Shown here: positions 6,923 through 61,447 of the stretch, piece after piece
How positions within the stretch are numbered: position 1 is the first letter of the stretch
How the letters are laid out: each line of letters opens with the position of its first letter
Assembly (NCBI GenBank): GCA_016783245.1
Contig: JADHWY010000001.1
Span: 38,007-102,006 of the forward strand
DNA: 64,000 bases
Source: Dehalococcoidales bacterium
GTDB lineage: Bacteria; Chloroflexota; Dehalococcoidia; Dehalococcoidales; BS750m-G39
Direction of reading: 5' to 3'
The notes under the pieces: generated by a model
The model's input: only the letters and a program-made list of their open reading frames with translations
Database searches by the model: none
What the model was told of the DNA's origin: nothing
Position numbers and translations under genes: made by a program

Positions 6923-8659
6923 ATGACGGAAGAGGAAAAGCTGGAGATAATGCGGCACTCTGCCGCTCATGTCATGGCTGAGGCGGTTCAGTCTATCTTT
7001 CCCGATACCAAGTTTGGCATTGGTCCATCTATTGAGAATGGCTTTTACTACGACTTTGATTTGCCCCGTTCATTGACCCCGGACGATTTATCGCTTATTG
7101 GGAGCAAGATGAATGAGATAATCGCCGCCGATATGCCTTTTGTCAGGCAGGAAGTGACCAAGGAGGAGGCTCGCAGGCTGTTTGCGGCTCAGCCCTATAA
7201 GCTGGAGTTGCTCGATGAGATTCCAGATGAAAAGGTCGGCGTGTATCGTCAGGGTTCATTTATTGATTTGTGCCGTGGGCCTCATGTGGACTCCACTGGC
7301 GAGATAAAGGCTTTTAAGCTGGTTAGCATTGCCGGCGCCTACTGGCGGGGCGATGAGCATCAACCTATGTTACAGCGGATATACGGCGTTGCCTTTGTCG
7401 CCAAAAAGGCTTTGGACGAGCACCTCAAAAAACTTGAGGAAGCAGCCAAGCGTGACCACAGGAAACTAGGCGCAGAGCTTGACCTTTATAGCATCCATGA
7501 GGAGGCAGGCCCAGGGCTGGTTCACTGGCATCCCAAGGGGGCGGTGATACGTCGTGTCATCGAGGATTTCTGGAAGGATGAGCATATTAAACGTGGCTAT
7601 GACATCATATATACCCCCCATATTGCTAAGCTAGACCTGTGGAAAACCAGCGGCCACTGGGAATTTTACCGTGATAACATGTATAGCCCCATGGAGATAG
7701 AAGGGCAGGAATATGTTCTTAAACCGATGAATTGTCTGGGGCATATCCTGATTTATAAGACCAGGCTGCGTAGTTACCGTGAGCTGCCGCTGCGCTATGC
7801 TGAGCTGGGCACTGTTTATCGGTATGAACGCTCCGGGGTACTGCTTGGTCTCTCCCGTGTCAGGGGCTTTACTCAGGATGACGCCCATATATTTTGCCGC
7901 TTTGACCAGCTGGAAGATGAGGTGGTGGGGGTACTAGATTTAGCTCGCTTTATGATAGATACCTTTGGTTTTACCACTTATCGCGTGTTGCTTTCTACTC
8001 GTCCCGAGAAATATGCTGGCGCACTGAAGGTGTGGGAGGAAGCCACGGATACCCTGAGACGAGCTCTGGAAAAACTAGATGTTGCCTACGAGATAGACCC
8101 GGGCGAAGGCGTATTCTATGGTCCCAAGATAGATATTAAATTCGAAGATGCCCTGGGGAGAGGGTGGCAGGGGCCTACTATTCAGATTGATTTTAATTTG
8201 CCCCAGCGCTTCGATGTTACCTACATCGGTGAGGATGGCAGAGAACACTCGGTAGCCATGGTACACCGTACCGTGCTGGGCAGTATGGAGCGTTTTCTTG
8301 CTTCGCTTATCGAGCATTACGGGGGTGCTTTCCCGGTATGGTTGGCACCGCTCCAGGTGATGATAATACCGATAGCTGACCGCCATCTGGATTATGCCCA
8401 TCAGCTGGAGGATGAACTTAGAAATGAGGGGATGCGGGCAAAGGTTGATACTCGCTCGGAGAGGGTGAACCTTAAAATTCGACAGGCGCAACTGGACAAG
8501 GTGCCCTACATGCTGATAGTAGGTGACAAGGAGGTAGCCGATTCTACTATATCCGTGCGGTTACGCAGCGGCGAACAGGCGGCTTCCCAATCCCTTGACA
8601 GTTTTAAGAGAAGTGTCAGGGCGGCTATCGCCAGCAGGGCGAAGGATTTAGAATTATAA
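6923..8659 (+). CDS. thrS: threonine--tRNA ligase (no N-terminal TGS domain)
   Basis: Starts in the editing domain (RHSAAHVMAEAV, GFYYDFDL). Class II catalytic core (YRYERSG, GFTQDDAHIF) and anticodon-binding domain are present. Confidence 0.95.
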   Translation: MTEEEKLEIMRHSAAHVMAEAVQSIFPDTKFGIGPSIENGFYYDFDLPRSLTPDDLSLIGSKMNEIIAADMPFVRQEVTKEEARRLFAAQPYKLELLDEIPDEKVGVYRQGSFIDLCRGPHVDSTGEIKAFKLVSIAGAYWRGDEHQPMLQRIYGVAFVAKKALDEHLKKLEEAAKRDHRKLGAELDLYSIHEEAGPGLVHWHPKGAVIRRVIEDFWKDEHIKRGYDIIYTPHIAKLDLWKTSGHWEFYRDNMYSPMEIEGQEYVLKPMNCLGHILIYKTRLRSYRELPLRYAELGTVYRYERSGVLLGLSRVRGFTQDDAHIFCRFDQLEDEVVGVLDLARFMIDTFGFTTYRVLLSTRPEKYAGALKVWEEATDTLRRALEKLDVAYEIDPGEGVFYGPKIDIKFEDALGRGWQGPTIQIDFNLPQRFDVTYIGEDGREHSVAMVHRTVLGSMERFLASLIEHYGGAFPVWLAPLQVMIIPIADRHLDYAHQLEDELRNEGMRAKVDTRSERVNLKIRQAQLDKVPYMLIVGDKEVADSTISVRLRSGEQAASQSLDSFKRSVRAAIASRAKDLEL

Positions 8660-8660
8660 T

Positions 8661-8689
8661 TTGATTACTCTTGACAAGTATGCTATAGT
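8661..8689 (+). promoter_or_regulatory. putative infC-rpmI-rplT promoter (TTGATT-17-TATAGT)
   Basis: Hexamers at 8661-8666 and 8684-8689 with a 17-nt spacer, in the thrS-infC gap. Confidence 0.4.
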
Positions 8690-8710
8690 TTTTGCCTGTG
8701 AAGGCTGGGT

Positions 8711-9256
8711 TTGAAGGAGGTAGATAAGAATATAATTAAGAAGCTGCGTGTAAATAGGGAGATCAGAGCCAGAGAGGTTCGCCTCGTGGGGGAGAAAGGG
8801 GAGCAGTTAGGCATTATGCCCATAGACCAGGCACGGGAAACGGCGAGGAGGCAGAACCTCGACCTTGTTGAGGTGGCAGCAACCGCAACACCTCCTGTGT
8901 GTCGCCTGCTTGATTACGGAAAATACAAGTATGAGCAGGCTAAGAAAGAACGTCAGGCCAGGAAGAGCCAGAAGATTTCGCTTTTGAAGGAAGTGCGGAT
9001 ACGACCAAAGATTGGCAGCCATGATTTTGATGCTAAAACGAGGAAAGCAAAGAAATTCCTGGAGGGTGGGGATAAGGTTAAGGTAAGTGTGCTGTTTAGA
9101 GGGCGTGAAATCACTCACCCTGATATCGGCTTGAGGTTGTTAAAGAAGATGGCGGGATCGGTACAAGAAGTGGCTTCCTTGGAGAGACAGCCATTAATGG
9201 ATGGCAGGAGAATGATTATGATTTTAGCACCAGCAGCCACCAGAAAAACTAAATAA
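8711..9256 (+). CDS. infC: translation initiation factor IF-3
   Basis: INREIRAREVRLVG..., YGKYKYEQ, VRIRPKI motifs. The track start TTG 8711 contains the SD GAAGGAGG (8713-8720). The true start is probably ATA 8732 or ATT 8735 (see finding). Confidence 0.93.
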   Translation: MKEVDKNIIKKLRVNREIRAREVRLVGEKGEQLGIMPIDQARETARRQNLDLVEVAATATPPVCRLLDYGKYKYEQAKKERQARKSQKISLLKEVRIRPKIGSHDFDAKTRKAKKFLEGGDKVKVSVLFRGREITHPDIGLRLLKKMAGSVQEVASLERQPLMDGRRMIMILAPAATRKTK

Positions 9257-9278
9257 GGGAAGGACAAGGGAAGCAAGG

Positions 9279-9482
9279 ATGCCAAAAATCAAAACTCATA
9301 AAGGCGCGAAGGGCCGCTTCCATATTACTGGCAGCGGCAAACTTATGCGGACTAAGGGCGGGAAAAGTCATTTGCGCCGCCGCAAAGCAAAACGAACCAA
9401 GCGCCTTTATGGTGAAACAATACCGGTAAGCCCTAGTGATAGGGCTCGGATAAAGAGACTTTTACCGTATGGAATCAGATAG
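9279..9482 (+). CDS. rpmI: 50S ribosomal protein L35
   Basis: MPKIKTHKGAKGRF... typical L35. Lies between infC and rplT. Confidence 0.95.
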   Translation: MPKIKTHKGAKGRFHITGSGKLMRTKGGKSHLRRRKAKRTKRLYGETIPVSPSDRARIKRLLPYGIR

Positions 9483-9491
9483 GAGGACATT

Positions 9492-9845
9492 TTGCCTAGA
9501 GTAAAGAGAGGGGTAACTGCTCATCGGCGACATAAGAAGGTGCTGTCCCTGACCAAAGGACATAGGGCAACCAAGCACTCCATTTATCGTCGGGCTCATG
9601 AGTCTATGCTGAAGTCGTTGAGCTATGCCTATTTCCACCGCCGTGAGCGAAAAGGTGATATGAGGCGTCTCTGGATTTCACGGGTCAATGCTGCCAGTCG
9701 AGCCCAGGGGCTTGGCTATAGTCAGTTTATCGAAGGATTAAGGAAGTCTGGGGTTGAAATCAACCGCAAGATGCTGGCCGATATGGCAGTTAGAGAGCCT
9801 GAATCTTTTGCCCATCTGGTAACCTTAGCTAAAGGCAAAGTCTAG
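9492..9845 (+). CDS. rplT: 50S ribosomal protein L20
   Basis: (M)PRVKRGVTAHRRHKK... typical L20. TTG start after SD AGGAGG. Confidence 0.95.
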   Translation: MPRVKRGVTAHRRHKKVLSLTKGHRATKHSIYRRAHESMLKSLSYAYFHRRERKGDMRRLWISRVNAASRAQGLGYSQFIEGLRKSGVEINRKMLADMAVREPESFAHLVTLAKGKV

Positions 9846-9863
9846 GACTGATAAAGGCAAAAG

Positions 9864-10904
9864 ATGCTGCAAAAACTGAAAGCATTAAAAGCGAATGCCA
9901 TCCAGGAGCTGGAAAGCATTGATATCGCCAAGGAGCTGGAGTCTTGGCGAATTCGCTATCTGGGCAAGAAAAGCGAGCTGACCCAGATTCTGCGCAGTTT
10001 GGCATCATTACCCATTGAGGAGAAGAGGGCGGTTGGCGCCTGTGCCAACGAGGTCAGGGCCGAGCTAGAGGATAACCTGCGACAGAAAGAGCAAGCCCTG
10101 CAAAAGGCGCAACTGGCGCTATCAGCGCAGAAAGAGAGCGTTGATATTACCTTGCCTGGCCGTTCCTTCCCCAGGGGTCATTTACATCCCATTACGCAAA
10201 CGCTCTATGAAATATGTGACATATTTGGCTCTATGGGCTTTCGGGTAATGGAAGGCCCGGAGGTAGAGTGGGATTATTATAACTTTGAGGCACTGAACAT
10301 CCCTGAGGAACATCCCGCCCGTGATGTCATGTCTACATCCTGGATTGATTATGAGACTGACAGTGGGCAGAGACCGATGTTGCTGCGCACCCACACTACT
10401 TCAGTAACCGCCAGGACTATTGAGACCATGAGTCCTCCAATAAGGGTAGTTGAGCCGGGAAGGGTCTATCGCTATGAGGCTAGTGATGCTACCCACACCC
10501 CTATGTTCCATCAGATTGATGGGCTGGTGGTGGATAAGGGCATTACTATGGGCGACTTGAAGGGGACGCTCTATGAGTTTGCCCGCCGTTTCTTTGGAGA
10601 GGAGAGAAAGGTACGTTTCCGTTGCGACTATTTCCCCTTTGTTGAGCCTGGTGCCGAGATGGCTATAGAATGCCTGAACTGCGGCGGCGAGGGATGCCGC
10701 TTGTGCGGCAACAGCGGCTGGATTGAGATATTAGGTGCTGGAATGACCCATCCCGAGGTGCTGCGGCGTGGTGGTATAGACCCCGAGGTTTATACCAGCT
10801 TTGCCTTCGGTATGGGTATCGACCGTCTGCCTATGCTTCGCCACAACATCGACGACATCAGGCTATTTTATGGTAGCGACCTTAGATTTTTAAAGCAGTT
10901 CTGA
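9864..10904 (+). CDS. pheS: phenylalanine--tRNA ligase alpha subunit
   Basis: [40 protein letters not shown] motifs. Confidence 0.95.
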
Positions 10905-10907
10905 GAG

Positions 10908-13307
10908 ATGAAGATTCCACTAAGCTGGCTTCAAGAGTATGTAGATATTGCTCTGCCCTCAGCTGACTTAGCCGACAGGCTGACAATGGCTGGCACTGAG
11001 GTCAAGGGCATACAGGTTATTGGCGATGGCTGGGAGAACATCGTCATCGGCCAGATTGTTGCCATCAATCCACACCCCAATGCCGACCGCCTGAGATTAG
11101 CCACCATAGACCTGGGTACAGAGCAGCATACCGTTGTCTGTGGAGCACCGAACCTTAACCTTGGTGATAGGGTGGCTTTCGCCTATGTTGGTGCCCAACT
11201 TATCGATGGGCATAGTGGGGAGGTGTTTCGCCTCAAACCTGCTAAGATTCGGGGCGTGGTCTCCAAGGGCATGGCATGCTCGGAAAAAGAGCTGGGCATC
11301 TCTGACAGCCACGAGGGGATTATGGTCTTGCCCGCCGAAGCGCCCATTGGAACTCCGCTTGCCGAGTATCTGGGCGATACTATCCTTGATGCGGATATAA
11401 CTCCTAACCGCCCTGATTGTCTCTGTATACTTGGCATCGCCAGGGAAGCTGCTGCTCTAACGAGGCAGAGTCTGCCTCTTCCTGAGGTGAAGTATGAACA
11501 GGCGGGCCCACCTATAGACCAGCAGGTGTCGGTGGAGATTGCTGCTCCTGACCTGTGCCCCAGATACTGCGCCAGCCTCATCACCGGGATAAAGGTGACT
11601 GAGTCCCCCCTATGGATGCAACAACGATTGCTGAAGTGCGGTATGCGGCCGATAAATAACATTGTGGATATCACCAACTATGTCATGCTGGAGTACGGTC
11701 AGCCCCTGCACGCCTTTGACTATCAAAAAATTAAGGGTGGAAAGATTATCGTGCGCCGACCCGCCAGCGGTGAGACCATCACCACTCTGGACGGGGAGGA
11801 GCGGCGCCTTTCTCAGGATATGCTGGTTATTGCCGATAAAGAAGGACCGGTGGCTATCGCCGGTGTTATGGGCGGTGCCGCTAGCGAGGTTGCCTCGGAG
11901 ACGACATCAATATTGCTGGAGGCAGCCAATTTCAACCCTGCCAATATTCACTATACCGGCAGGGTATTGGGTATGCCCAGCGAAGCCTGTATGCGATTCG
12001 AGCGAGGCATTCACCCCGAGCTTGTTATGCCGGCAATCGAACGGGCTACCCAGCTGATTGTCCAGTTAGCCGGTGGCGAGGCAGCCAGGGGCTTAGTTGA
12101 TGTTTACCCTGGCAAAGCAGAGCCTGAGCCTATTACTCTGACAACTGACCAGGTAAAGCGTCTTCTGGGTGTTGATTTCAGCCTTGACCAGATAGTGGGG
12201 GCACTGACCTCCCTGGGTTTTGACTGTCAGGAAGGAGCTTCGGAGGTTAGAGCTATCGCACCCTACTGGCGAAGCGATATTCATGTGGCGGTTGACCTTA
12301 TCGAAGAGGTGGCTCGTATTATGGGCTATGATAACATCCCCACCACTATGCTGAGCCAGCCCATACCGAGACAAACCCCTGACCCTATTCTCAGCCTTAA
12401 GCAGGGGGTTAGAGATAGCATTGCTGGTTACGGCTTTCAGGAGGTACTTACATATTCGCTGACCAGTCTGGAAATGCTGAATAAGCTGTTGCCCGAATCC
12501 GGCTCTGTTGAACCTCTGCCGCTTCGTGTCGCCAATCCTATGACTCTGGAGCAGGAGTACCTTCGTCCTGACCTGCGAGCTAATCTGTTAGCTGCCCTCT
12601 CAGCCAACATGAGATATGAGGAGGACAGCATCAAGCTTTTTGAGCTGGGTAAGGTATATCTGCCCAAGGAGAAGGATTTGCCCGATGAGCCTGAAATGAT
12701 GTGCGGCGTAGCAAGCGGCTCCAGATGGGGAAGGTCATGGCACGGCGGAGATGATGCGTTTGATTTCTATGATGCTAAAGGGGCGGTTGAAGGCTTACTC
12801 AGTCAGCTGAATATAGAAGCCAGCTTTGTAGAGGGCAAAGACCAGAGTTTGCATCCGCTCAGGCAGGCGGCAATAGTTGCTGGGAGCAACCAACTGGGCG
12901 TTGTCGGTGAGCTGCACCCTAAGGTATCGCTGGCTTTTGAAATTCCTGAAGCGGTCTACCTTTTTGAAATCAACCTGTCAGCGTTGCTGCCTTTCACCCT
13001 GGGTCACAGAATATTCCAGCCGGTATCACCATTTCCCACCATGGTCAGGGATATCGCCCTGGTAGTTGATGTTGGGGTAACTCATCAGCAGGCAACGGAT
13101 ATCATCAGGGGCTTTCCCCTGGTGAAACAGGTCGCTATATTTGATGTCTATTCCGGCGGGCAGGTTGCGTCAGGGAAGAAGTCCCTGGCCTACAGCATCA
13201 CCTTCCAATCCTCCACTCATACCCTGACCGATGAAGAGGTTAACAAGGTTCAGCAGAAAATTCTAGATGAGCTATCTCGCGAGCTTGGCGCCGACCTGCG
13301 TGCTTGA
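10908..13307 (+). CDS. pheT: phenylalanine--tRNA ligase beta subunit
   Basis: MKIPLSWLQEYV start, tRNA-binding domain (HPNADRL), B3/4, B5 and FDX-ACB domains. Lies 3 nt after pheS. Confidence 0.95.
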   Translation: MKIPLSWLQEYVDIALPSADLADRLTMAGTEVKGIQVIGDGWENIVIGQIVAINPHPNADRLRLATIDLGTEQHTVVCGAPNLNLGDRVAFAYVGAQLIDGHSGEVFRLKPAKIRGVVSKGMACSEKELGISDSHEGIMVLPAEAPIGTPLAEYLGDTILDADITPNRPDCLCILGIAREAAALTRQSLPLPEVKYEQAGPPIDQQVSVEIAAPDLCPRYCASLITGIKVTESPLWMQQRLLKCGMRPINNIVDITNYVMLEYGQPLHAFDYQKIKGGKIIVRRPASGETITTLDGEERRLSQDMLVIADKEGPVAIAGVMGGAASEVASETTSILLEAANFNPANIHYTGRVLGMPSEACMRFERGIHPELVMPAIERATQLIVQLAGGEAARGLVDVYPGKAEPEPITLTTDQVKRLLGVDFSLDQIVGALTSLGFDCQEGASEVRAIAPYWRSDIHVAVDLIEEVARIMGYDNIPTTMLSQPIPRQTPDPILSLKQGVRDSIAGYGFQEVLTYSLTSLEMLNKLLPESGSVEPLPLRVANPMTLEQEYLRPDLRANLLAALSANMRYEEDSIKLFELGKVYLPKEKDLPDEPEMMCGVASGSRWGRSWHGGDDAFDFYDAKGAVEGLLSQLNIEASFVEGKDQSLHPLRQAAIVAGSNQLGVVGELHPKVSLAFEIPEAVYLFEINLSALLPFTLGHRIFQPVSPFPTMVRDIALVVDVGVTHQQATDIIRGFPLVKQVAIFDVYSGGQVASGKKSLAYSITFQSSTHTLTDEEVNKVQQKILDELSRELGADLRA

Positions 13308-53142: not shown

Positions 53143-53429
53143 ATCGAGCCTAATCTTGGTTCGCACTATATATGTTATGTCGAATAGACAGGCAAGGCAC
53201 GCTCGCCTCCGCTGAAAGCTGCTTCCCTCCCCACATAACTAATATGAAACCTTATGAGATGTTGAGAAAGGCACAGATTATATATTGGTTGTTGACCTGT
53301 GTCTTTAACCTTGATTACTTATCATGTTTAGAAAGAAAACCTGTGGGGACGGCATAGAGATTACAAAAGTGAGGGCGGTAATATTATGTCAACTACTCTA
53401 TCGCCACCTTATTTGCGGAGAAAATAAAG

Positions 53430-53501
53430 TGGGCTCGGTAGGGTTCGAACCTACGACCAATCGGTTATGAGCCGACCGCTCTGCCACTGAGCTACGAGCC
53501 C
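53430..53501 (-). tRNA. tRNA-Met (anticodon CAT; elongator-type, an Ile2 lysidine tRNA not excluded), no encoded CCA
   Basis: Reverse complement folds as GGGCTCG/CGAGCCC acceptor and GTCGG-CTCATAA-CCGAT anticodon arm, with T arm GTAGG-TTCGAAC-CCTAC. Lacks the initiator features (no 1:72 mismatch, no GGG/CCC anticodon stem). Confidence 0.85.
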
Positions 53502-55076: not shown

Positions 55077-55164
55077 GGAGAGGTGTCCGAGTGGTTTAAG
55101 GTGCCGCTCTCGAAAAGCGGTCTCGCTTTGGCGAGCGTGGGTTCGAATCCCACCCTCTCCGCCA
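55077..55164 (+). tRNA. tRNA-Ser (anticodon CGA), CCA encoded
   Basis: Type II tRNA with a long variable arm (TCTCGCTTTGGCGAGCG) and anticodon loop CTCGAAA. Confidence 0.9.
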
Positions 55165-55205
55165 CCAAGCAAATAGGGTATAATATCATCATCTTGCTAT
55201 ATAGT

Positions 55206-55292
<87 letters not shown>

Positions 55293-55368
55293 CTTCCTTA
55301 TTTTCACCCTGATTTAGCGACTATTTTTGATTGTCATCAACCTACCTCTATGCTAGAATGCTCTCGTA

Positions 55369-56490
55369 GTGAGTAACAAAGACATTAAATATTGGGTGGG
55401 TTTCAGTCTGATATCAGGCATCGGTCGCGTCAGGTTGGCTCAGATGGAAAAACACTTCGGCAATCTCGAGGCTGCCTGGCAGGCTGCTCCAGCGGACTTA
55501 AAGCGCTCAGGGCTGGACAGCGGCTCAATACGTGCTATTACCTCGCGGCGACCCGATATCTCTCTGGATGCTGAGATGGAAAAGCTAGACCGCTATGGAG
55601 TGAAGGTGCTTACCTTCCATGACGCTGAGTATCCATCTCGGCTCAACGAGATATATGACTATCCCCCGATACTTTATGTCAGGGGCTCCCTGCTCTCTGA
55701 GGATGAGTGGTGCCTGGCAGTGGTTGGTACCCGTCGGGCTACTGTTTATGGAAGGCAGGTAACCGAGGAAATAGTAACTGACCTGGCTCGGAATAAAATC
55801 ACTATTGTCAGCGGCTTGGCTAGAGGGATCGATTCCATAGCCCACCGCAGTGCCCTGGAAGCTGGGGGCAGGACCCTGGCTGTATTTGCCTGCGGGCTTG
55901 ATATTGTCTACCCTGCTGAGAACGCCGAGCTAGCTCGCAGAATTATCCAGCAGGGCGCTTTAATCAGTGAGTACCCTCTAGGCACCAGACCCAGGGCGGA
56001 TAACTTTCCCCGACGCAATCGGATAATGAGCGGAATAAGCCTGGGGGTTCTCATCGCCGAGGCAGGAAAGGTCAGTGGGGCCATGATTACCGCTCAAATG
56101 GCGCTGGAGCAAAACAGAGAGGTGTTTGCCATTCCCGGCAGCATCCTCTCGCCGACGAGCGGCGGTACCAACCACCTTATCCAGGAAGGCGCTAAGCTGG
56201 TCAGCAACTACAATGATATTCTGGAGGAATTGAACCTGACAGCGGTAGTCCATCAGATGGAAATCAGGGAGATTGTCACCGCCTCTGATACCGAGTCCCT
56301 GCTATTAAAGCAGCTGGGTGCCGAGCCCACCCATATCGATGAGATCTGCCACTCAACCAGACTACCGATATCAGCACTTAGCAGTACTCTAGCAATGATG
56401 GAGCTTAAAGGACTGGTAAAGCAGGTAGGGAATATGAATTATGTTCTGGCTCGAGAAGCAAGGGGAGAATACAGGATAAAGGTAGAATAG
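55369..56490 (+). CDS. dprA: DNA-processing protein DprA (Smf)
   Basis: GTRRATVYG, SGLARGIDS(I)AH, Rossmann-like DprA core, C-terminal winged-helix (DML1-like) region. GTG start. Confidence 0.9.
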   Translation: MSNKDIKYWVGFSLISGIGRVRLAQMEKHFGNLEAAWQAAPADLKRSGLDSGSIRAITSRRPDISLDAEMEKLDRYGVKVLTFHDAEYPSRLNEIYDYPPILYVRGSLLSEDEWCLAVVGTRRATVYGRQVTEEIVTDLARNKITIVSGLARGIDSIAHRSALEAGGRTLAVFACGLDIVYPAENAELARRIIQQGALISEYPLGTRPRADNFPRRNRIMSGISLGVLIAEAGKVSGAMITAQMALEQNREVFAIPGSILSPTSGGTNHLIQEGAKLVSNYNDILEELNLTAVVHQMEIREIVTASDTESLLLKQLGAEPTHIDEICHSTRLPISALSSTLAMMELKGLVKQVGNMNYVLAREARGEYRIKVE

Positions 56491-56495
56491 GAGCT

Positions 56496-58625
56496 ATGAA
56501 GAAGAGCCTGGTTATAGTGGAATCGCCGGCTAAAGCCAGAACACTGACCAAGATTCTGGGTAAAGGCTATAGCCTCAAGGCTTCAATAGGACATATAAGA
56601 GACCTGCCTAAAAGCCAACTGGGTGTAGACACAGAGCACAGCTTTGCCCCTAAATATGTGATACCACGGGATAAAAGGAAAACAGTGGGAGAGCTTAAAC
56701 GGGCAGCTGAAGCAGCGTCTACCATATACCTTGCCACCGACCCAGACCGTGAGGGAGAAGCCATTTCCTGGCACTTAACCGAGGCAACCAGGACCAAAGG
56801 GGTACCCTACCGCCGTGTCGTCTTCCATGAGCTAACTAAGGAGGCTATCAAGCGTGCTTTCAAGCATCCCCGCTCTATAGATATGCAGCTGGTTAACGCC
56901 CAGCAGGCGCGACGCATTCTGGATAGGCTGGTGGGCTACAAGATAAGTCCCCTATTGTGGCGAAATGTGAGGAGAGGGCTTTCGGCAGGCAGGGTGCAAT
57001 CAGTAACATTAAGGATTATTGTTGACCGGGAGCGAGAGATTGAGAAATTCGTCCCCGTAGAGTATTGGTCTATCGAGGCAGAACTGACCAGGAAAGCACC
57101 CCCTGAGACACCAGCCTTCCGAGCGATGCTGGTCGGTCTTGCCGATGGCACCAAGCTGGACATCCGCAATGAAAAAGAGGCGGCCGATTTCCGTGCTGAA
57201 CTTGAGCAGGCTGCCTACAATGTTGCCAAAGTAAAGACGAAAAAGGCGACCCGTCGACCAGCCCCACCGTTTATCACCAGCACTCTACAGCAGGAATCCT
57301 GGCGTAAGCTCCGCTTCAGTGCCAAACAAACTATGGTCATTGCCCAACAGCTCTATGAGGGTCTATCTATAGGCGATGAAGGCAGTGTGGGGCTTATCAC
57401 CTATATGCGCACTGATTCCACCCGAGTGGCTCGCTCCGCTGTAGCCGAAGCCAGGGAATTCATCGTTGATAGATATGGCTCTCAATTTATTCCACCACGC
57501 GCCCGCTCCTTCGCCACCACGGTAAAAGGGGCGCAGGAAGCTCATGAAGCTATCCGTCCCACCAAGGTGTGGCGAGAGCCGTCCCTGATTAAACCCTACC
57601 TTAATAGAACTCAGTTCAAGCTATATGAGCTTATCTGGAAACGAATGGTGGCCAGCCAGATGGCAGCGGCTCTATTTGATAATACCACCGTTGATATCGA
57701 AGCCAAGCGCCCGCGTTCCAGAACTAAATACCTTTTCAGAACCACGACCTCTGTTATCACATTTCCTGGCTTTATGACCCTTTATATTGAGGGACTGGAT
57801 GAAGGCGAAGAGGAAGGCAGGAAAAAGTCCCTGCTCCCCAATCTGGAAAAGGGCGATGAGCTTAATCTGCTTGAGCTTTTCCCTGAGCAGCACTTTACCC
57901 AACCCCCACCCCGTTTCACCGAAGCCACACTGGTTAAGACCCTGGAGCAATGGGGTATCGGACGCCCCAGCACCTATGCCCCCATCCTCTCCACCATTCA
58001 GGAGCGGGAGTATGTTACTAAAACTAAAGGGGGGTTTCAGCCCACGGAACTGGGATGCGTGGTCAATGACCTGCTGGTCGAGCACTTCTCCGACATTGTT
58101 GATATCGAGTTCACCGCCCGTATGGAGAAGGAGCTGGACGAGATAGCTAATGATAACAGAGACTGGGTGGGCGTAATCCGGGATTTCTATACACCCTTTG
58201 ATAAGAGTCTCACGGATGCCTCCCAGCTTATGGAGAGGGTAAAGTTAGCCGACGAACTGGTTGAGGAAACCTGCCCTCAATGCGGCAAACCCCTGGCTAT
58301 CAAGAGGGGGCGTTATGGGAAGTTTCTCGCCTGCAGCGGCTATCCTGAGTGTAAATTTACCAAGCCCTATCAGATTAAGATTGGTGTTAGCTGCCCGCAG
58401 TGCGGCAGCGAGCTAATACAGAGGCTGAGCAAAAAGGGGCGCCTCTTCTATGGCTGCAGCAACTACCCCGACTGCCGGTTCGCCAGCAATTTCAGACCCC
58501 TCCCCGACCCCTGCCCCACCTGCGGCGGACTGCTAACCCTGTACCGGGAGAGGTGGGCAAAGTGCACCAAGTGCCGCTATAGGGGGAAGATAGAGGAATC
58601 AGAAACGACCACAGAAACTAAATAG
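56496..58625 (+). CDS. topA: DNA topoisomerase I
   Basis: Toprim N-terminus (LVIVESPAKA, DPDREGE), catalytic Tyr region (GLITYMRTDS), C-terminal tandem Cys4 zinc ribbons. Confidence 0.95.
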   Translation: MKKSLVIVESPAKARTLTKILGKGYSLKASIGHIRDLPKSQLGVDTEHSFAPKYVIPRDKRKTVGELKRAAEAASTIYLATDPDREGEAISWHLTEATRTKGVPYRRVVFHELTKEAIKRAFKHPRSIDMQLVNAQQARRILDRLVGYKISPLLWRNVRRGLSAGRVQSVTLRIIVDREREIEKFVPVEYWSIEAELTRKAPPETPAFRAMLVGLADGTKLDIRNEKEAADFRAELEQAAYNVAKVKTKKATRRPAPPFITSTLQQESWRKLRFSAKQTMVIAQQLYEGLSIGDEGSVGLITYMRTDSTRVARSAVAEAREFIVDRYGSQFIPPRARSFATTVKGAQEAHEAIRPTKVWREPSLIKPYLNRTQFKLYELIWKRMVASQMAAALFDNTTVDIEAKRPRSRTKYLFRTTTSVITFPGFMTLYIEGLDEGEEEGRKKSLLPNLEKGDELNLLELFPEQHFTQPPPRFTEATLVKTLEQWGIGRPSTYAPILSTIQEREYVTKTKGGFQPTELGCVVNDLLVEHFSDIVDIEFTARMEKELDEIANDNRDWVGVIRDFYTPFDKSLTDASQLMERVKLADELVEETCPQCGKPLAIKRGRYGKFLACSGYPECKFTKPYQIKIGVSCPQCGSELIQRLSKKGRLFYGCSNYPDCRFASNFRPLPDPCPTCGGLLTLYRERWAKCTKCRYRGKIEESETTTETK

Positions 58626-58698
58626 ATAATATCCCCCGCTCATACTCTGCCGCAAGCCCCCTAATTTCCGCATTATCCTCGAATAATGGTAAATAACC

Positions 58699-58739
58699 TT
58701 GACATTTACCAATTATTGTGCTATATCTATATATAGATA
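58699..58739 (+). promoter_or_regulatory. cassette promoter (TTGACA-17-TATATC) overlapped by a perfect 16-bp palindrome
   Basis: -35 at 58699-58704 and -10 at 58722-58727. The palindrome TATCTATATATAGATA at 58724-58739 overlaps the -10 and the start site. Confidence 0.6.
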
Positions 58740-58766
58740 AGAGAATATATCATCGAGGAGGCTTCA

Positions 58767-58994
58767 ATGAATGAAATAAATAATGAAACCCCGGAAGAGC
58801 GATTCAAAAGAATCGCTACATTGAGAACTAATACAGTCTTAGATAGAATCAGGATACTGGGTAATCTCTCCAATAAAAAGATGTACAGCCACTCAGAAGA
58901 AGATATAGACAAAATCTTCTCAGCTATAACTAAACAGCTTAGGGAAGTCAGAGCAAAGTTTAACTCTCAGAAACAAAAAAGGTTTAAACTATAA
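58767..58994 (+). CDS. cassette gene A: 75-aa predicted all-helical basic protein, unknown family
   Basis: SD GAGGAGG 6 nt upstream. AT-rich codon usage unlike the flanks. Heptad-like pattern ERFKRIATLRTNTVLDRIRILGNLSN. Confidence 0.65.
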   Translation: MNEINNETPEERFKRIATLRTNTVLDRIRILGNLSNKKMYSHSEEDIDKIFSAITKQLREVRAKFNSQKQKRFKL

Positions 58995-59009
58995 AAAGGG
59001 AGGGGTAAA

Positions 59010-60827
59010 ATGAAGAAGAGAGAGGTAAAGTTAGGATTCGCCGATGAGAATATTGCTGACCAATATCCTATTCTTCATCTTAGTGAGGGTCTCCAAAAAG
59101 ATGCCGGACAGAACTCGTGGGACGCGAAAGTGACTAGAAAGGGAAAAGCCTGGAAATTGGTGTTTAGGTATATTCCTCAATTAAATAGCCTAACCATAGA
59201 AGACTTTGGAACCCTCGGAATGAATGCAAAAAGATGGAAGGAGTACCAGAGCTTGTGGGACACAACCAAAGCTGAAGAACCAACATTAGGAGCTCGCGGG
59301 CAAGGAAAGTTCTTATTTCATTACTTTGCTAAAAACAAGCTTGTTCTGACCGAAAGCATTGACGAGGAGAAAAATTATCGTTTCTCGTTTGGCACTAGTG
59401 AAGAATATGACGATGAAAACAAAAAACTAGAGGATTTTATTCCCAATGCAAAACCGCTAGACCACCAAGGAACACGTATCTGGATTATGGATTTAAAACA
59501 AGAACTCAGGGATGAACTACTTGACTATAAAGCATTTATGAATTATATCGCAGCAACTTGGTGGGAAATTATTAGGAATTGGAATGCTACCTTTATTGTT
59601 AACTTTAACGGTACTGACCACAAAGTAGTGCTTCCTGAATTACCAGTTGCCGAAAAAGAAAAGGTATTCCCTAACGAGAAGATTATTGACTTGGGCAGAG
59701 TAAAGAAGCTCGTGTTACGATATTGCAAAAACGAAGCGCCTGAACTTTATAGAGGTATAGCGGTGCAAAGAGGGGGAATGACCATTCTCAGGCTCCCTGT
59801 TTCTGCTGAGGAAACGATTAAAAATAAGATTTACGGATATTGCACTTTCGACGAAGATTTGGAATCGGAACTAAAGAAGGTGGAACTTCCAAATCACTTT
59901 GGTTTTAGCCCCAAAAGAGCTTGGAACCATACTAAGGAATATATTAGAAGAAAATCAGATGCGTTCATTCAAGAGGTTAGCCCGGCAAAAAAGAAGAAAG
60001 AGATAAACCTACCGCAAGATTTGATAGAAAGAGCAGTCCGCATCGTAAATGACCTAGTCAGAGAATACGCTCCAGAACTAGCTGCAGAAGTAACTGGATC
60101 AGGTGGGAAAAAGCCAGACACTAAGAAGCACAGAGAACGAAAATCACCTCCTCCAATACGAATCGATACATTTAGAGGTAACGCTAGGAAATTGGAATAT
60201 GACGAATCTCTTATAACAGAGTGTGAGCTTGTTAATGGTACTGATAATGCAGCAAAATTACAGCTAAAGATAGAGGTTAGACATGAGGAAGGTGACTTGA
60301 AGTTTAACCCAAGATATACAATCGTCCTTGATAGCAACAAGAGAGAAAGGATTGATATACCCCTTGTTGACTTCCAAGAAGGCATTGACAAGCCTGGTGA
60401 ATATCGAGCAACTGCTATCTTGGAAGACGGAGAGGGAAAAGAACCTCATAGACGCTCATTTACCTTTTATTTGCATGAAGAGCCTCCACCTCCAAGAGGA
60501 AGGGTATTCCTAAGCACCATGAGGTTTTTGTATGGCAAAGGTAAACCTTTTGAGAGAAGCAAGCAGTTACCATTAACAGATAAAGCGGTTCTCTACATTA
60601 TTTTCGACCACCTTGATTTTGCACATGTGAGGGAGGTAAGAAGCTCCAAGAAAGCCCAGAAGCAAGAGGTATTTCTTTACTCGATTAAGTGCGGTATAGA
60701 TGAAGCCGTACAGAAATTGCTTGAATTCAGGTATAATGAAGGTCAGTTAGATACAGATGAGATAAGAGTAATTAAAGATAAGTGTGATGCAATGTATTAT
60801 GACGCAGTATCGAGTCCCATGGCATAA
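59010..60827 (+). CDS. cassette gene B: 605-aa protein with N-terminal GHKL (Bergerat-fold) ATPase-like motifs and an uncharacterised C-terminal two-thirds
   Basis: SD AGGGAGGGG upstream. N-box-like DAGQNSWDA (N35), G1-like EDFGTLGM (D65), G2 GARGQG (94-99). The spacing resembles MutL/MORC. A lysine-rich linker and PPPP-flanked beta-rich segment follow. Confidence 0.7.
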   Translation: MKKREVKLGFADENIADQYPILHLSEGLQKDAGQNSWDAKVTRKGKAWKLVFRYIPQLNSLTIEDFGTLGMNAKRWKEYQSLWDTTKAEEPTLGARGQGKFLFHYFAKNKLVLTESIDEEKNYRFSFGTSEEYDDENKKLEDFIPNAKPLDHQGTRIWIMDLKQELRDELLDYKAFMNYIAATWWEIIRNWNATFIVNFNGTDHKVVLPELPVAEKEKVFPNEKIIDLGRVKKLVLRYCKNEAPELYRGIAVQRGGMTILRLPVSAEETIKNKIYGYCTFDEDLESELKKVELPNHFGFSPKRAWNHTKEYIRRKSDAFIQEVSPAKKKKEINLPQDLIERAVRIVNDLVREYAPELAAEVTGSGGKKPDTKKHRERKSPPPIRIDTFRGNARKLEYDESLITECELVNGTDNAAKLQLKIEVRHEEGDLKFNPRYTIVLDSNKRERIDIPLVDFQEGIDKPGEYRATAILEDGEGKEPHRRSFTFYLHEEPPPPRGRVFLSTMRFLYGKGKPFERSKQLPLTDKAVLYIIFDHLDFAHVREVRSSKKAQKQEVFLYSIKCGIDEAVQKLLEFRYNEGQLDTDEIRVIKDKCDAMYYDAVSSPMA

Positions 60828-60838
60828 CCCAAGAAAAA

Positions 60839-61447
60839 TTGACAAGGGAAGTTAGGACTATGGTAAAGAGGAAAAGGGAGAGTATAGTAAGAAGAGATAC
60901 AATCCAATGGGGCGGAAAGGAGATAGAAGTTGATATATTTGATGCGAAAGTCGTCCTAGGCAGTGGGGAAGAACTCGAAAGCATTGAGGAGTTGCTAATA
61001 GAAGAAGAAATAGAGAAGGCAATCCACGTTGCTTTAAAGGAAATAGAAACCATCGCGCAAAAATATCCCGATAAAGAGAAAAACATATGGTATTGCTATC
61101 AAGTGGGCAAGGTGCTTCAGTTTGTAGATACCAAGGGCTTTATTGATAGGAGAGGGCTTATCTGGCGCAGAATGGCATACGACCTTCGTCCAGATTTGTT
61201 TGGTGGCAAGAAGAAAAACGCTGACGAGTCAAAAAGGTATCCAGAAATCATATATCACTTGGGGAAACAAAAAAAGAAAAATTTAAAAAGGGCCAAGTTC
61301 GACCAGTGGTATGAGATATTAAAATTTAAACGGATATATGAGGGAAAAGATAACGAGTTGCTGGAGCAAATTTTAGCTGAATGCGAGTCCAAAAACTTAT
61401 CCAGTGTTCAATTACGCCAAAGAATTAAGGAGCTCCAGCAGGAATAA
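60839..61447 (+). CDS. cassette gene C: ~200-aa lysine-rich helical protein, unknown family
   Basis: Same strand and composition as A and B. The start is TTG 60839 or ATG 60860. The pattern WY.YQVGK...W....Y.L...............QWYEILKF......LSSVQLRQRI weakly recalls the N-terminal helical domain of DUF1016/YhcG-type proteins (from memory only). Confidence 0.6.
   Translation: MTREVRTMVKRKRESIVRRDTIQWGGKEIEVDIFDAKVVLGSGEELESIEELLIEEEIEKAIHVALKEIETIAQKYPDKEKNIWYCYQVGKVLQFVDTKGFIDRRGLIWRRMAYDLRPDLFGGKKKNADESKRYPEIIYHLGKQKKKNLKRAKFDQWYEILKFKRIYEGKDNELLEQILAECESKNLSSVQLRQRIKELQQE

Follow-up and report, generated by a model that had tools for sequence, protein, structure and literature searches.

A paraMORC-like GHKL protein and its small helical partner in a mobile cassette of Dehalococcoidales

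We analyzed a window of 64,000 nucleotides (nt) from a Dehalococcoidales bacterium (GenBank assembly GCA_016783245.1, contig JADHWY010000001.1, positions 38,007 to 102,006 of the forward strand), following up a sequence-only reading of one of its genes, here termed gene B. That the product of gene B binds nucleotides and has the GHKL fold is nearly certain, and it is well supported that gene B and the gene that follows it, gene C, are a horizontally mobile functional unit, for which we lean toward a role in restriction or defense. Throughout, coordinates are positions in the window and residue numbers are those of the gene B protein, the product of an open reading frame (ORF) at 59010..60827 on the + strand that encodes 605 amino acids (aa).

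ATP-binding domain and overall architecture of gene B

The motifs and domains of gene B lie as follows:

59010..60827, + strand: gene B, a GHKL plus transducer ATPase of 605 aa from a paraMORC-like family without a name
59010..59588, + strand: Bergerat ATP-binding domain, residues 1-193, which opens with a conserved arm (M1-Y19), delimited from the AlphaFold2 model and Foldseek
59100..59126, + strand: motif I (N box), DAGQNSWDA, residues 31-39, invariant or nearly so
59202..59222, + strand: motif II (G1 box), DFGTLGM, residues 65-71, with D65 at the adenine-contact position
59262..59312, + strand: ATP-lid region (residues 85-98) running into motif III (G2 box), GARGQGKF, residues 94-101
59469..59480, + strand: motif IV core, G154-T155-R-I, within HQGTRIWI
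59589..59984, + strand: transducer (S5-like or Hsp90-middle-like) domain, residues ~194-325, from Foldseek alignments and the model
60087..60155, + strand: disordered Lys/Pro/Gly-rich linker, residues 360-382, with a predicted local distance difference test score (pLDDT) of 34-47
60156..60479, + strand: immunoglobulin (Ig)-like beta-sandwich, residues 383-490, between PPP and PPPP, all-beta in the model with pLDDT 83-90
60480..60827, + strand: C-terminal beta and helical-bundle domain, residues 491-605 plus the stop codon, modeled as strand at 503-531 and helix at 535-604

The three ATP-binding boxes that the sequence-only reading had recognized are where it had placed them, with the N35 codon at 59112, DFGTLGM at 59202-59222, and the codons of G94, G97, and G99 within 59289-59306. 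The fourth motif had gone unremarked; it ends exactly at the coordinate where that reading closed its segment (59480). By position, D31 of motif I is the catalytic base and N35 the Mg ligand, followed by D38 and A39. The boxes are separated by 30 residues (N35 to D65) and 29 residues (D65 to G94). When the protein was shuffled with its composition preserved, single motifs turned up in 1.8%, 4.9%, and 8.4% of sequences, and all three in order and with this spacing in none of 40,000; moreover, the window has 128 stop-to-stop segments that reach 100 aa, and gene B itself is the only one with the three-motif pattern. Thus, the motifs are not due to chance.

Conservation is a stronger argument for the motifs than the shuffles. 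We used a close-family alignment of 33 homologues (49-92% identity) and a broad family set of 30 sequences that includes relatives at only 21-28% identity. Invariant in the former are Q34, N35, D38, and A39 in motif I, E64, D65, T68, G70, and M71 at motif II, and G94, R96, G97, Q98, G99, K100, and F101 in motif III. Across the broad set, A39, D65, G70, G94, R96, G97, G99, K100, F101, and G154 are still invariant, and K30, D31, Q34, N35, D38, and T68 are conserved in at least 90% of sequences. The pattern D31-x3-N35-x2-D38-A39 is present in 29 of the 30 broad-set sequences, the remaining one being truncated at its N-terminus. Motif II takes the form D-x-[G/N]-T-x-G-[L/M], also in 29 of 30 (D65 and G70 invariant, T68 nearly so), whereas a GARGQGKF-type motif III and a motif IV core of the form G[TSA][RK][IV] are found in all 30. 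Two deviations from the textbook boxes that had been pointed out earlier, an Asp in place of the Glu four residues ahead of the Asn and an extra residue in the G1 box, are real and are traits of the whole family; a strict DxGxG expression fails on the window protein, in which motif II is one residue longer.

Sequence searches place this family at the limit of detection. In single-sequence scans of Pfam, NCBIfam, PADLOC, and PHROGs, gene B gave nothing significant except phrog_6203, and against PF13589 (HATPase_c_3) it had no match at E <= 1, the gathering threshold of 25 bits not being reached. Its relatives, however, do match: 10 of the 33 homologues hit PF13589 at E <= 1, within residues 29-137, and one that is 73% identical to gene B (P0033) passes the curated cut-off (26.2 versus 25 bits), with residues 32-137 collinear with profile positions 12-117. 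The gene B family therefore sits at the edge of the PF13589 model. The phrog_6203 profile, of unknown function and 644 positions long, aligns collinearly at positions 79-202 with residues 74-203 of gene B (E = 3e-5), a hint that phages may encode a GHKL family of comparable size. Searches of PDB sequences with gene B, the close-family profile, and the broad-family profile returned no GHKL match; the arrestin and interferon-gamma receptor matches of the broad profile were set aside as Ig-like noise.

The fold is recognized much more readily than the sequence. An AlphaFold2 model built on the 33-sequence alignment has a mean pLDDT of 79, and inside the ATPase domain the only low-confidence stretch (pLDDT below 50) is residues 85-98, at the position of the mobile ATP lid of GHKL enzymes. 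Foldseek matched the model to PDB structures of Hsp90, TRAP1, GRP94, and HtpG over 370-430 columns with E values down to 9e-11, and to the mouse MORC3 ATPase (5ix1) over about 390 columns with an E value of 4.5e-7 and a target-normalized template-modeling (TM) score of 0.47; the match probability of the predicted fold to solved GHKL ATPases is 1.00. In the viral library BFVD, the model matches giant-virus Hsp90, phage RIIA proteins, and topoisomerase II ATPase subunits.

A profile-to-sequence comparison with hhalign, in which the MORC3, MutL, and Hsp90 N-domain targets were sequences entered by hand, points the same way. The E values are 0.0024 for MORC3, 0.083 for MutL (over the N box), and 0.045 for Hsp90. 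D31 aligns to E35 of MORC3, E29 of MutL, and E47 of Hsp90; N35 aligns to N39, N33, and N51, and D65 to D67, D58, and D93, respectively. G94-G99 falls on the glycine loop of MORC3, and the alignments to MORC3 and Hsp90 both open a one-residue gap at motif II. We take the residue numbers in these alignments to agree with those used in the literature for the three proteins. The structural matches, the PF13589 matches of the homologues, and this residue mapping bear out the earlier assignment of the N-terminus to the Bergerat (GHKL) fold. The spacing of the boxes had also been called MutL-like. This label is too specific: structurally, Hsp90 and MORC are closest, and the protein lacks the endonuclease motif of MutL.

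In MutL, MORC, Hsp90, and type II topoisomerases, the domain after the ATPase is the transducer. In gene B, the Foldseek columns run on through the N-terminal and middle domains of Hsp90 and through the ATPase cassette and S5 region of MORC3, across residues ~194-325, which are modeled as beta-beta-beta-alpha-beta-alpha. This domain contains the segment GIAVQRGGM, in which G249 and M257 are invariant, a position 289 at which 27 of the 30 broad-set sequences have a basic residue (K, R, or H), and an [E/Q]xxxH motif, E292-L-P-N-H296 (59883-59897), in which H296 is invariant; [EQ]xxxH followed by an aromatic residue is present in all 30. In the model, a helix (residues 336-359) leads to the linker. 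No other part of the protein varies as much as the linker, which has a mean column entropy of 2.26 bits and differs in length among homologues, as opposed to 0.91 bits in the ATPase domain, which is the best conserved. The KKKKE and KKPDTKKHRERK basic stretches and the beta-rich segment flanked by PPP and PPPP, which had been described before, are present in the translation; the basic character of the linker is not kept in homologues.

The beta-sandwich gives weak matches to Mannosidase_ig, C2, A2M_bMG2, arrestin, and the interferon-gamma receptor, and it is possibly a recognition domain. In four homologues of 704-717 aa (P0102, P0105, P0109, and P0111), an insert of about 100 aa (alignment columns ~395-560) repeats the sandwich segment, including its "RRFDFYVHEEPP" ending, indicating that the Ig-like module was tandemly duplicated. 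In the C-terminal domain, H534 of a conserved [D/N]-H pair is nearly invariant in the broad family and Y557 is invariant. By analogy with MutL and Hsp90, this domain is presumed to be a dimerization domain. Both the sandwich and the C-terminal part vary more than the ATPase. The sequence-only reading had found no nameable motif in the ~440 residues that follow the boxes; this does not hold for residues ~194-325, the predicted transducer, or for residues 383-490, the Ig-like sandwich. An ATPase, a transducer, a flexible linker, and a C-terminal domain make up the layout of MutL and Hsp90, both of which dimerize through the C-terminus and have an N-terminal gate that is shut by ATP binding.

The cassette, its partner genes, and their mobility

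Gene B is the middle gene of a compact, low-GC cassette, which comprises the following features in addition to gene B itself:

58690..61447, + strand: whole low-GC cassette (promoter and genes A, B, and C), 2.75 kb, GC content 0.36-0.42
58699..58737, + strand: cassette promoter, with -35 TTGACA (58699-58704), a 17-nt spacer containing TG, and -10 TATATC (58722-58727)
58767..58994, + strand: gene A, first gene of the cassette, a 75-aa helical protein (ORF)
60860..61447, + strand: gene C, the 195-aa partner, an N-terminal beta-hairpin plus helical bundle, starting at Met8

Gene C is the obligate partner of gene B. Of the 39 loci with enough sequence, 37 have a gene C homologue that starts at -8 to +33 nt downstream of gene B. 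The loci range taxonomically from Chloroflexota to Bathyarchaeia and include the distant bacterial and archaeal relatives, and some of them duplicate one another. The ORF tool begins gene C at TTG 60839; however, the protein is 100% identical from Met8 onward to a protein of another Dehalococcoidales metagenome-assembled genome (P0121), so Met8 (60860) is most likely the start. The family (~200 aa) has few invariant residues and no catalytic-looking motif that we recognized. The AlphaFold2 model of gene C has a mean pLDDT of 73 and found nothing better than E = 0.39 in a Foldseek search of the PDB; Pfam, NCBIfam, PADLOC, and PHROGs gave no match, nor did a profile search of PDB sequences. Weak HEPN-like ranks were rejected, as the Rx4-6H motif is lacking.

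Gene A, on the other hand, is found directly upstream of gene B in only nine loci; it is an accessory gene and a possible regulator. It has no match in Pfam, NCBIfam, PADLOC, or PHROGs, and its profile retrieved from the PDB only coiled-coil noise (haemagglutinin HA2). In three loci of one distant clade, a conserved gene encoding 338-390 aa lies directly upstream of gene B (L020, 4870-5886; L022, 4718-5890; L025, 4895-5929). It has no Pfam match, and its N-terminus, MKYIxDxPxxIxKxIxxLIxxGDYxSVSDFALTAxENQ, looks ribbon-helix-helix-like when judged by eye; this gene may be the counterpart of gene A. The idea that it is a hidden nuclease was dropped, since the by-eye alignment, with its ribbon-helix-helix-like opening, suggests a regulator.

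The gene B family is small and rare, yet it is spread over at least 10 phyla. Among 5.8 billion proteins searched, 138 were homologues with a length of ~600 aa. Screening a single genome for each species brought in bacterial and archaeal relatives of ~670-690 aa at only 21-28% identity, and a profile search of 1.84 billion cluster representatives yielded 331 proteins at E <= 1e-3, 101 of them at E <= 1e-30. The close clade alone (>50% identity) includes Dehalococcoidia, Aerophobetes, WOR-3, KSB1, Aminicenantes, Cloacimonadota, Saccharibacteria, Peregrinibacteria, Falkowbacteria, and Eubacteriales.

Comparison with a second Dehalococcoidales genome (L007, 5747-8423) bears directly on mobility. 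There the cassette occupies the same site, in the order dprA, topA, [A, B, C], xerC, pepP. Between the two genomes, the cassette is 86% identical at the DNA level and the flanks 69-70%. Synonymous divergence (dS) is 0.38 for gene B, 1.45 for gene A, 1.15 for gene C, and 1.7-3.6 for four flanking genes, and the ratio of nonsynonymous to synonymous divergence (dN/dS) of gene B is 0.18. That gene B is far less diverged than genes A and C suggests a recent replacement or recombination of gene B alone. The nucleotide homology between loci spans only 58755/58781 to 61431/61461, bounded by the promoter at one end and the gene C stop codon at the other, and other close copies of the cassette lie in unrelated genomic contexts. 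Many of the metagenomic contigs that carry gene B measure only 2.2-3.0 kb and are thus hardly longer or shorter than the cassette (e.g., L009, 2,958 nt, which holds just A-B-C, and L014, 3,004 nt); contigs of cassette length are what assemblers yield when one sequence has several genomic contexts in a sample.

In the window, the cassette is flanked by topA (56496-58625) and xerC, which encodes an XerC/D-type recombinase; the flanks have a GC content of ~0.52. We found no terminal repeats or att sites at the borders of the island and no adjacent tRNA gene that could serve as an integration site, the nearest tRNA genes being at least 3.3 kb away. The xerC-like ORF, if begun at GTG 61404, would overlap gene C, but it aligns with L007 only from residue 17 onward, which makes ATG 61452 the probable start codon. 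This ATG lies only 4 nt past the gene C stop codon, and with no terminator in between, transcription from the cassette promoter may continue into the recombinase gene. An Rfam scan of the region found only tRNAs, all upstream of dprA: tRNA-Met at 53429-53501 and a tandem pair of tRNA-Ser genes at 55077-55164 and 55206-55293 (CGA and GGA anticodons). The ORF at 55083-55376 overlaps the tRNA-Ser genes and is therefore probably spurious.

The cassette has a predicted sigma-70-type promoter of its own: six otherwise unrelated upstream regions first align at TTGAC(A) and at the TG-n-TAT -10 element. A simple promoter scan missed it because its -10 element ends in C. A perfect 14-nt palindrome, ATCTATATATAGAT (58724-58737), overlaps the -10 element and is a possible operator, to which protein A might bind. 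The AT-rich inverted repeats found here in other loci differ from it.

Genomic neighborhoods and proposed function

The cassette often resides beside restriction and anti-phage genes. One locus is surrounded by a Type ISP enzyme, TIR, PycTM, and MNT/HEPN genes (L001), another by an MmeI-like enzyme and a NACHT protein (L004), and in a third an N6/N4 methylase follows gene C (L003). In four loci from four phyla, including an archaeon (L015, L022, L024, and L027), B-C is followed by the C5 cytosine methylase Dcm and then by a T:G-mismatch enzyme; L024 has Vsr in this place, and the other three have an HhH-GPD glycosylase. Loci L020 and L025 carry a FokI-cleavage-domain protein, an HhH-GPD glycosylase, and AspBHI/Mrr or Schlafen-AlbA_2 genes; an Mrr_N gene was also seen near B-C, as was an HsdR-type helicase, the latter in one locus only. 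No helicase or restriction endonuclease (RE)-fold gene is conserved beside B-C among the loci examined. The island that holds B-C in L003 also encodes a giant protein of more than 1,387 aa (7530-11113, - strand) with a match to sacsin (PF25794), whose repeats we take to be Hsp90-like GHKL modules. Neighborhoods with methylases, Vsr, and restriction genes have been described for prokaryotic MORC and paraMORC ATPases (PMC2292703), and a similar one for other HATPase_c_3 proteins with a small partner (Bellieny-Rabelo et al. 2021, PMC8011034).

A mobile low-GC cassette that so often lies next to such genes is plausibly a new defense module. On balance, we lean toward a reading in which gene B is an ATP-gated dimeric clamp on DNA that acts with its partner in restriction or defense. 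From architecture, context, and analogy we infer dimerization, DNA as the substrate, the defense role, and the roles of genes A and C. The clamp or sensor with a novel recognition region that the sequence-only reading had put forward is likewise reasonable. In the mechanism we propose, protein B would dimerize constitutively through its C-terminal domain, and ATP binding would shut the N-terminal gate, as in other GHKL+S5 enzymes, with hydrolysis that is probably slow because Asp31 replaces Glu. The closed protein would form a clamp on DNA, with protein C as an adaptor or regulator and the variable beta-sandwich as the recognition surface. The module would then restrict or silence incoming DNA within restriction-modification and defense islands, and in some lineages it would work together with the Dcm methylase and the T:G-mismatch enzyme.

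Several observations weigh against this proposal. About half of the examined loci, the window included, lie among housekeeping genes. The cassette in the window encodes no methylase; for it to restrict in the classical way, self-protection would have to come from another locus. Searches of GenBank phages (INPHARED), PLSDB plasmids, and IMG/VR gave no match, and the cassette is thus not a known phage or plasmid gene. In PADLOC-DB v2, gene B reached only E = 0.024 to the candidate system PDC-M33A, and genes A and C had no match. Family libraries, the PDB, and Foldseek detected no nuclease, toxin, membrane, or other effector domain in A, B, or C. Finally, with Asp in place of the usual general base, the protein may hydrolyze ATP only weakly or not at all. 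As for PDC-M33A, distant relatives of gene B match it at E values of 7e-7 and 4e-6, best over the N box, and the partners of these relatives have no PADLOC match.

A bolder form of the proposal, which we regard as tentative at best, is that A-B-C is an unrecognized, self-contained mobile immunity cassette in which a MORC-like clamp and a helical partner stop foreign DNA without a recognizable nuclease. This could happen through ATP-dependent entrapment or compaction of DNA, as a prokaryotic counterpart of MORC silencing, or through a new catalytic site formed by the invariant His296 and Tyr557 and the nearly invariant His534. Recognition would fall to the Ig-like domain, and the hosts would be mostly uncultivated bacteria and archaea.

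The same observations can be read in other ways. The full-length Hsp90 chaperones are the best structural matches (E values of 9e-11 to 1e-7), giant-virus Hsp90 is matched as well, no DNA-binding or nuclease domain was detected in gene B, and the sandwich and C-terminal parts vary more than the ATPase, as a recognition surface would. Gene B might accordingly be an Hsp90-like protein-remodeling ATPase that senses or clamps a protein client, for example a phage protein held by the Ig-like domain, with protein C as a co-chaperone or effector. We think this unlikely: there is no Pfam HSP90 match and no PDB Hsp90 sequence match even with family profiles, MORC3 has the higher target-normalized TM-score (0.47), and the recurrent Dcm, Vsr, glycosylase, and restriction context points to DNA. 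It is similarly improbable that protein B binds ATP without hydrolyzing it and acts as a nucleotide-sensing switch or pseudo-enzyme. This would fit the Asp at position 31, found in all 29 of the 30 sequences that cover it, and the lack of a canonical DxGxG in the window protein. However, Asp is still a carboxylate, and the E42D mutant of GyrB is reported to retain reduced ATPase activity; the other ATP-binding residues and the basic position 289 (27 of 30) are also strongly constrained, as is gene B as a whole (dN/dS of 0.18).

That B-C adjoins Dcm together with either Vsr (L024) or an HhH-GPD glycosylase (L015, L022, and L027) raises the question of whether the pair, instead of serving defense, is a MutL-like matchmaker that aids Vsr in repairing the T:G mismatches left by deamination of 5-methylcytosine. 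The succession of GHKL domain, transducer, disordered linker, and C-terminal domain mirrors MutL, and the stimulation of Vsr by MutL in E. coli is discussed in PMC2292703. Yet in most loci, the window among them, B-C is accompanied by none of Dcm, Vsr, and a glycosylase, all 30 sequences lack the MutL endonuclease motif, no MutL family of Pfam or NCBIfam is matched, and the cassette is low in GC, mobile, and often accompanied by TIR, NACHT, and Type ISP genes; we consider a repair role quite unlikely. Because PF13589 belongs to the histidine-kinase-like ATPase clan, and an "HK-like + RR-like" reading has been proposed for HATPase_c_3 proteins near Dcm and Vsr (PMC8011034), gene B could also be viewed as a histidine-kinase-type signaling protein with protein C as its response regulator. 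This is very improbable, since the ATPase is N-terminal and followed by a transducer, with no dimerization and histidine phosphotransfer (DHp) His-helix ahead of it, neither protein matches HisKA, HEF_HK, or Response_reg, and protein C is a helical bundle without a receiver fold.

To our knowledge, few prokaryotic GHKL+S5 members have been studied. Those linked to restriction were predicted in 2008 to be the ancestors of the eukaryotic MORC chromatin silencers (PMC2292703). With two or three genes in 2.75 kb, its own promoter, wide transfer, and no obvious nuclease, the cassette is a tractable candidate for studying the action of a bacterial MORC-like clamp on DNA, and it could show whether nuclease-free, compaction-type immunity occurs in prokaryotes. 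The analysis also supplies annotation for ~330 clusters of "hypothetical" proteins and their partner genes.

Comparison with known families

In our literature searches, we found no description of the gene B family. In fold it resembles Hsp90 (HSP90B, TRAP1, Hsc82, GRP94, and HtpG), to which it also owes its top Foldseek E value (9e-11) and with which it shares a three-part layout of ATPase, middle or transducer, and C-terminal domain. However, identity in these alignments is only 11-15%, no HSP90 family of Pfam or NCBIfam is matched, and neither phmmer nor the family profiles retrieve an Hsp90 from the PDB. Moreover, unlike in Hsp90, the C-terminal half contains a beta-sandwich, and the context is mobile and restriction-linked rather than housekeeping. 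Gene B thus resembles Hsp90 in fold only and is not a member by sequence. Nor is it a member of MutL. It shares with MutL the GHKL domain and transducer, a disordered Pro/Lys-rich linker, a C-terminal domain, a similar motif spacing, and a Dcm/Vsr-type association, but the DQHA(x)2E(x)4E endonuclease motif is present in 0 of 30 gene B sequences, Pfam and NCBIfam give no MutL match, and no MutL is among the top 50 structural matches.

With MORC the likeness extends to the expected mode of action, ATP-driven N-terminal dimerization. Compared with MORC3, gene B has Asp for the catalytic Glu and a motif II that is one residue longer, and it lacks a CW or coiled-coil domain. The S5 motif that defines MORC, G-h-x-h-h-p-x-x-R-h-l (PMC2292703), was found by regular expression in none of the 30 sequences; the similar-looking G249-IAVQRGGM has the invariant Met257 in place of the Arg. 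Gene B is therefore not a MORC sensu stricto.

Two other groups of restriction-associated GHKL proteins share parts of this organization. The HATPase_c_3 "HK-like" and Response_reg_2 "RR-like" pairs (PMC8011034) are likewise two-gene units with a small partner and with a C5 methylase and Vsr adjacent, but HEF_HK (PF19191) and Response_reg_2 (PF19192) were not detected in proteins B and C, and protein B has no second HATPase_c domain at its C-terminus. GHKL-Shedu (VcSduA/paraMORC3; PMC12137116) has a GHKL N-domain with motifs I-IV, as gene B does; its anti-phage activity is experimentally validated, and its authors model a dimer with a clamp-like middle domain. VcSduA is a single gene with a C-terminal DUF4263 PD-(D/E)xK nuclease, whereas gene B has a partner gene and no nuclease domain.

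The paraMORC proteins (Iyer, Abhiman & Aravind 2008, PMC2292703) share the N-terminal GHKL domain with its ATP motifs followed by an S5/transducer domain, as well as a patchy occurrence among bacteria and archaea that reflects lateral mobility, and neighborhoods that include cytosine methylases, Vsr, and restriction genes. The hallmark of paraMORC2, an ExxxH motif that is strongly conserved toward the C-terminus of the S5 domain (PMC2292703), is present in the window protein as E292-L-P-N-H296; across the family this position reads ExxxH in 17 of 30 sequences and QxxxH in 13 of 30, with His296 invariant. On the other hand, paraMORC2 associates with a superfamily II (SFII) helicase or an RE-fold nuclease, neither of which is conserved with gene B; the gene B family instead has an obligate ~200-aa helical partner, an Ig-like beta-sandwich, and a distinct C-terminal domain. 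The ranges, compared by description only, also differ: cyanobacteria and Gram-positives for paraMORC2, and Chloroflexota, candidate phyla, archaea, and sponge-symbiont Proteobacteria for gene B. We therefore place gene B among the paraMORC-like, restriction-associated GHKL+S5 ATPases and assign it to no named family.

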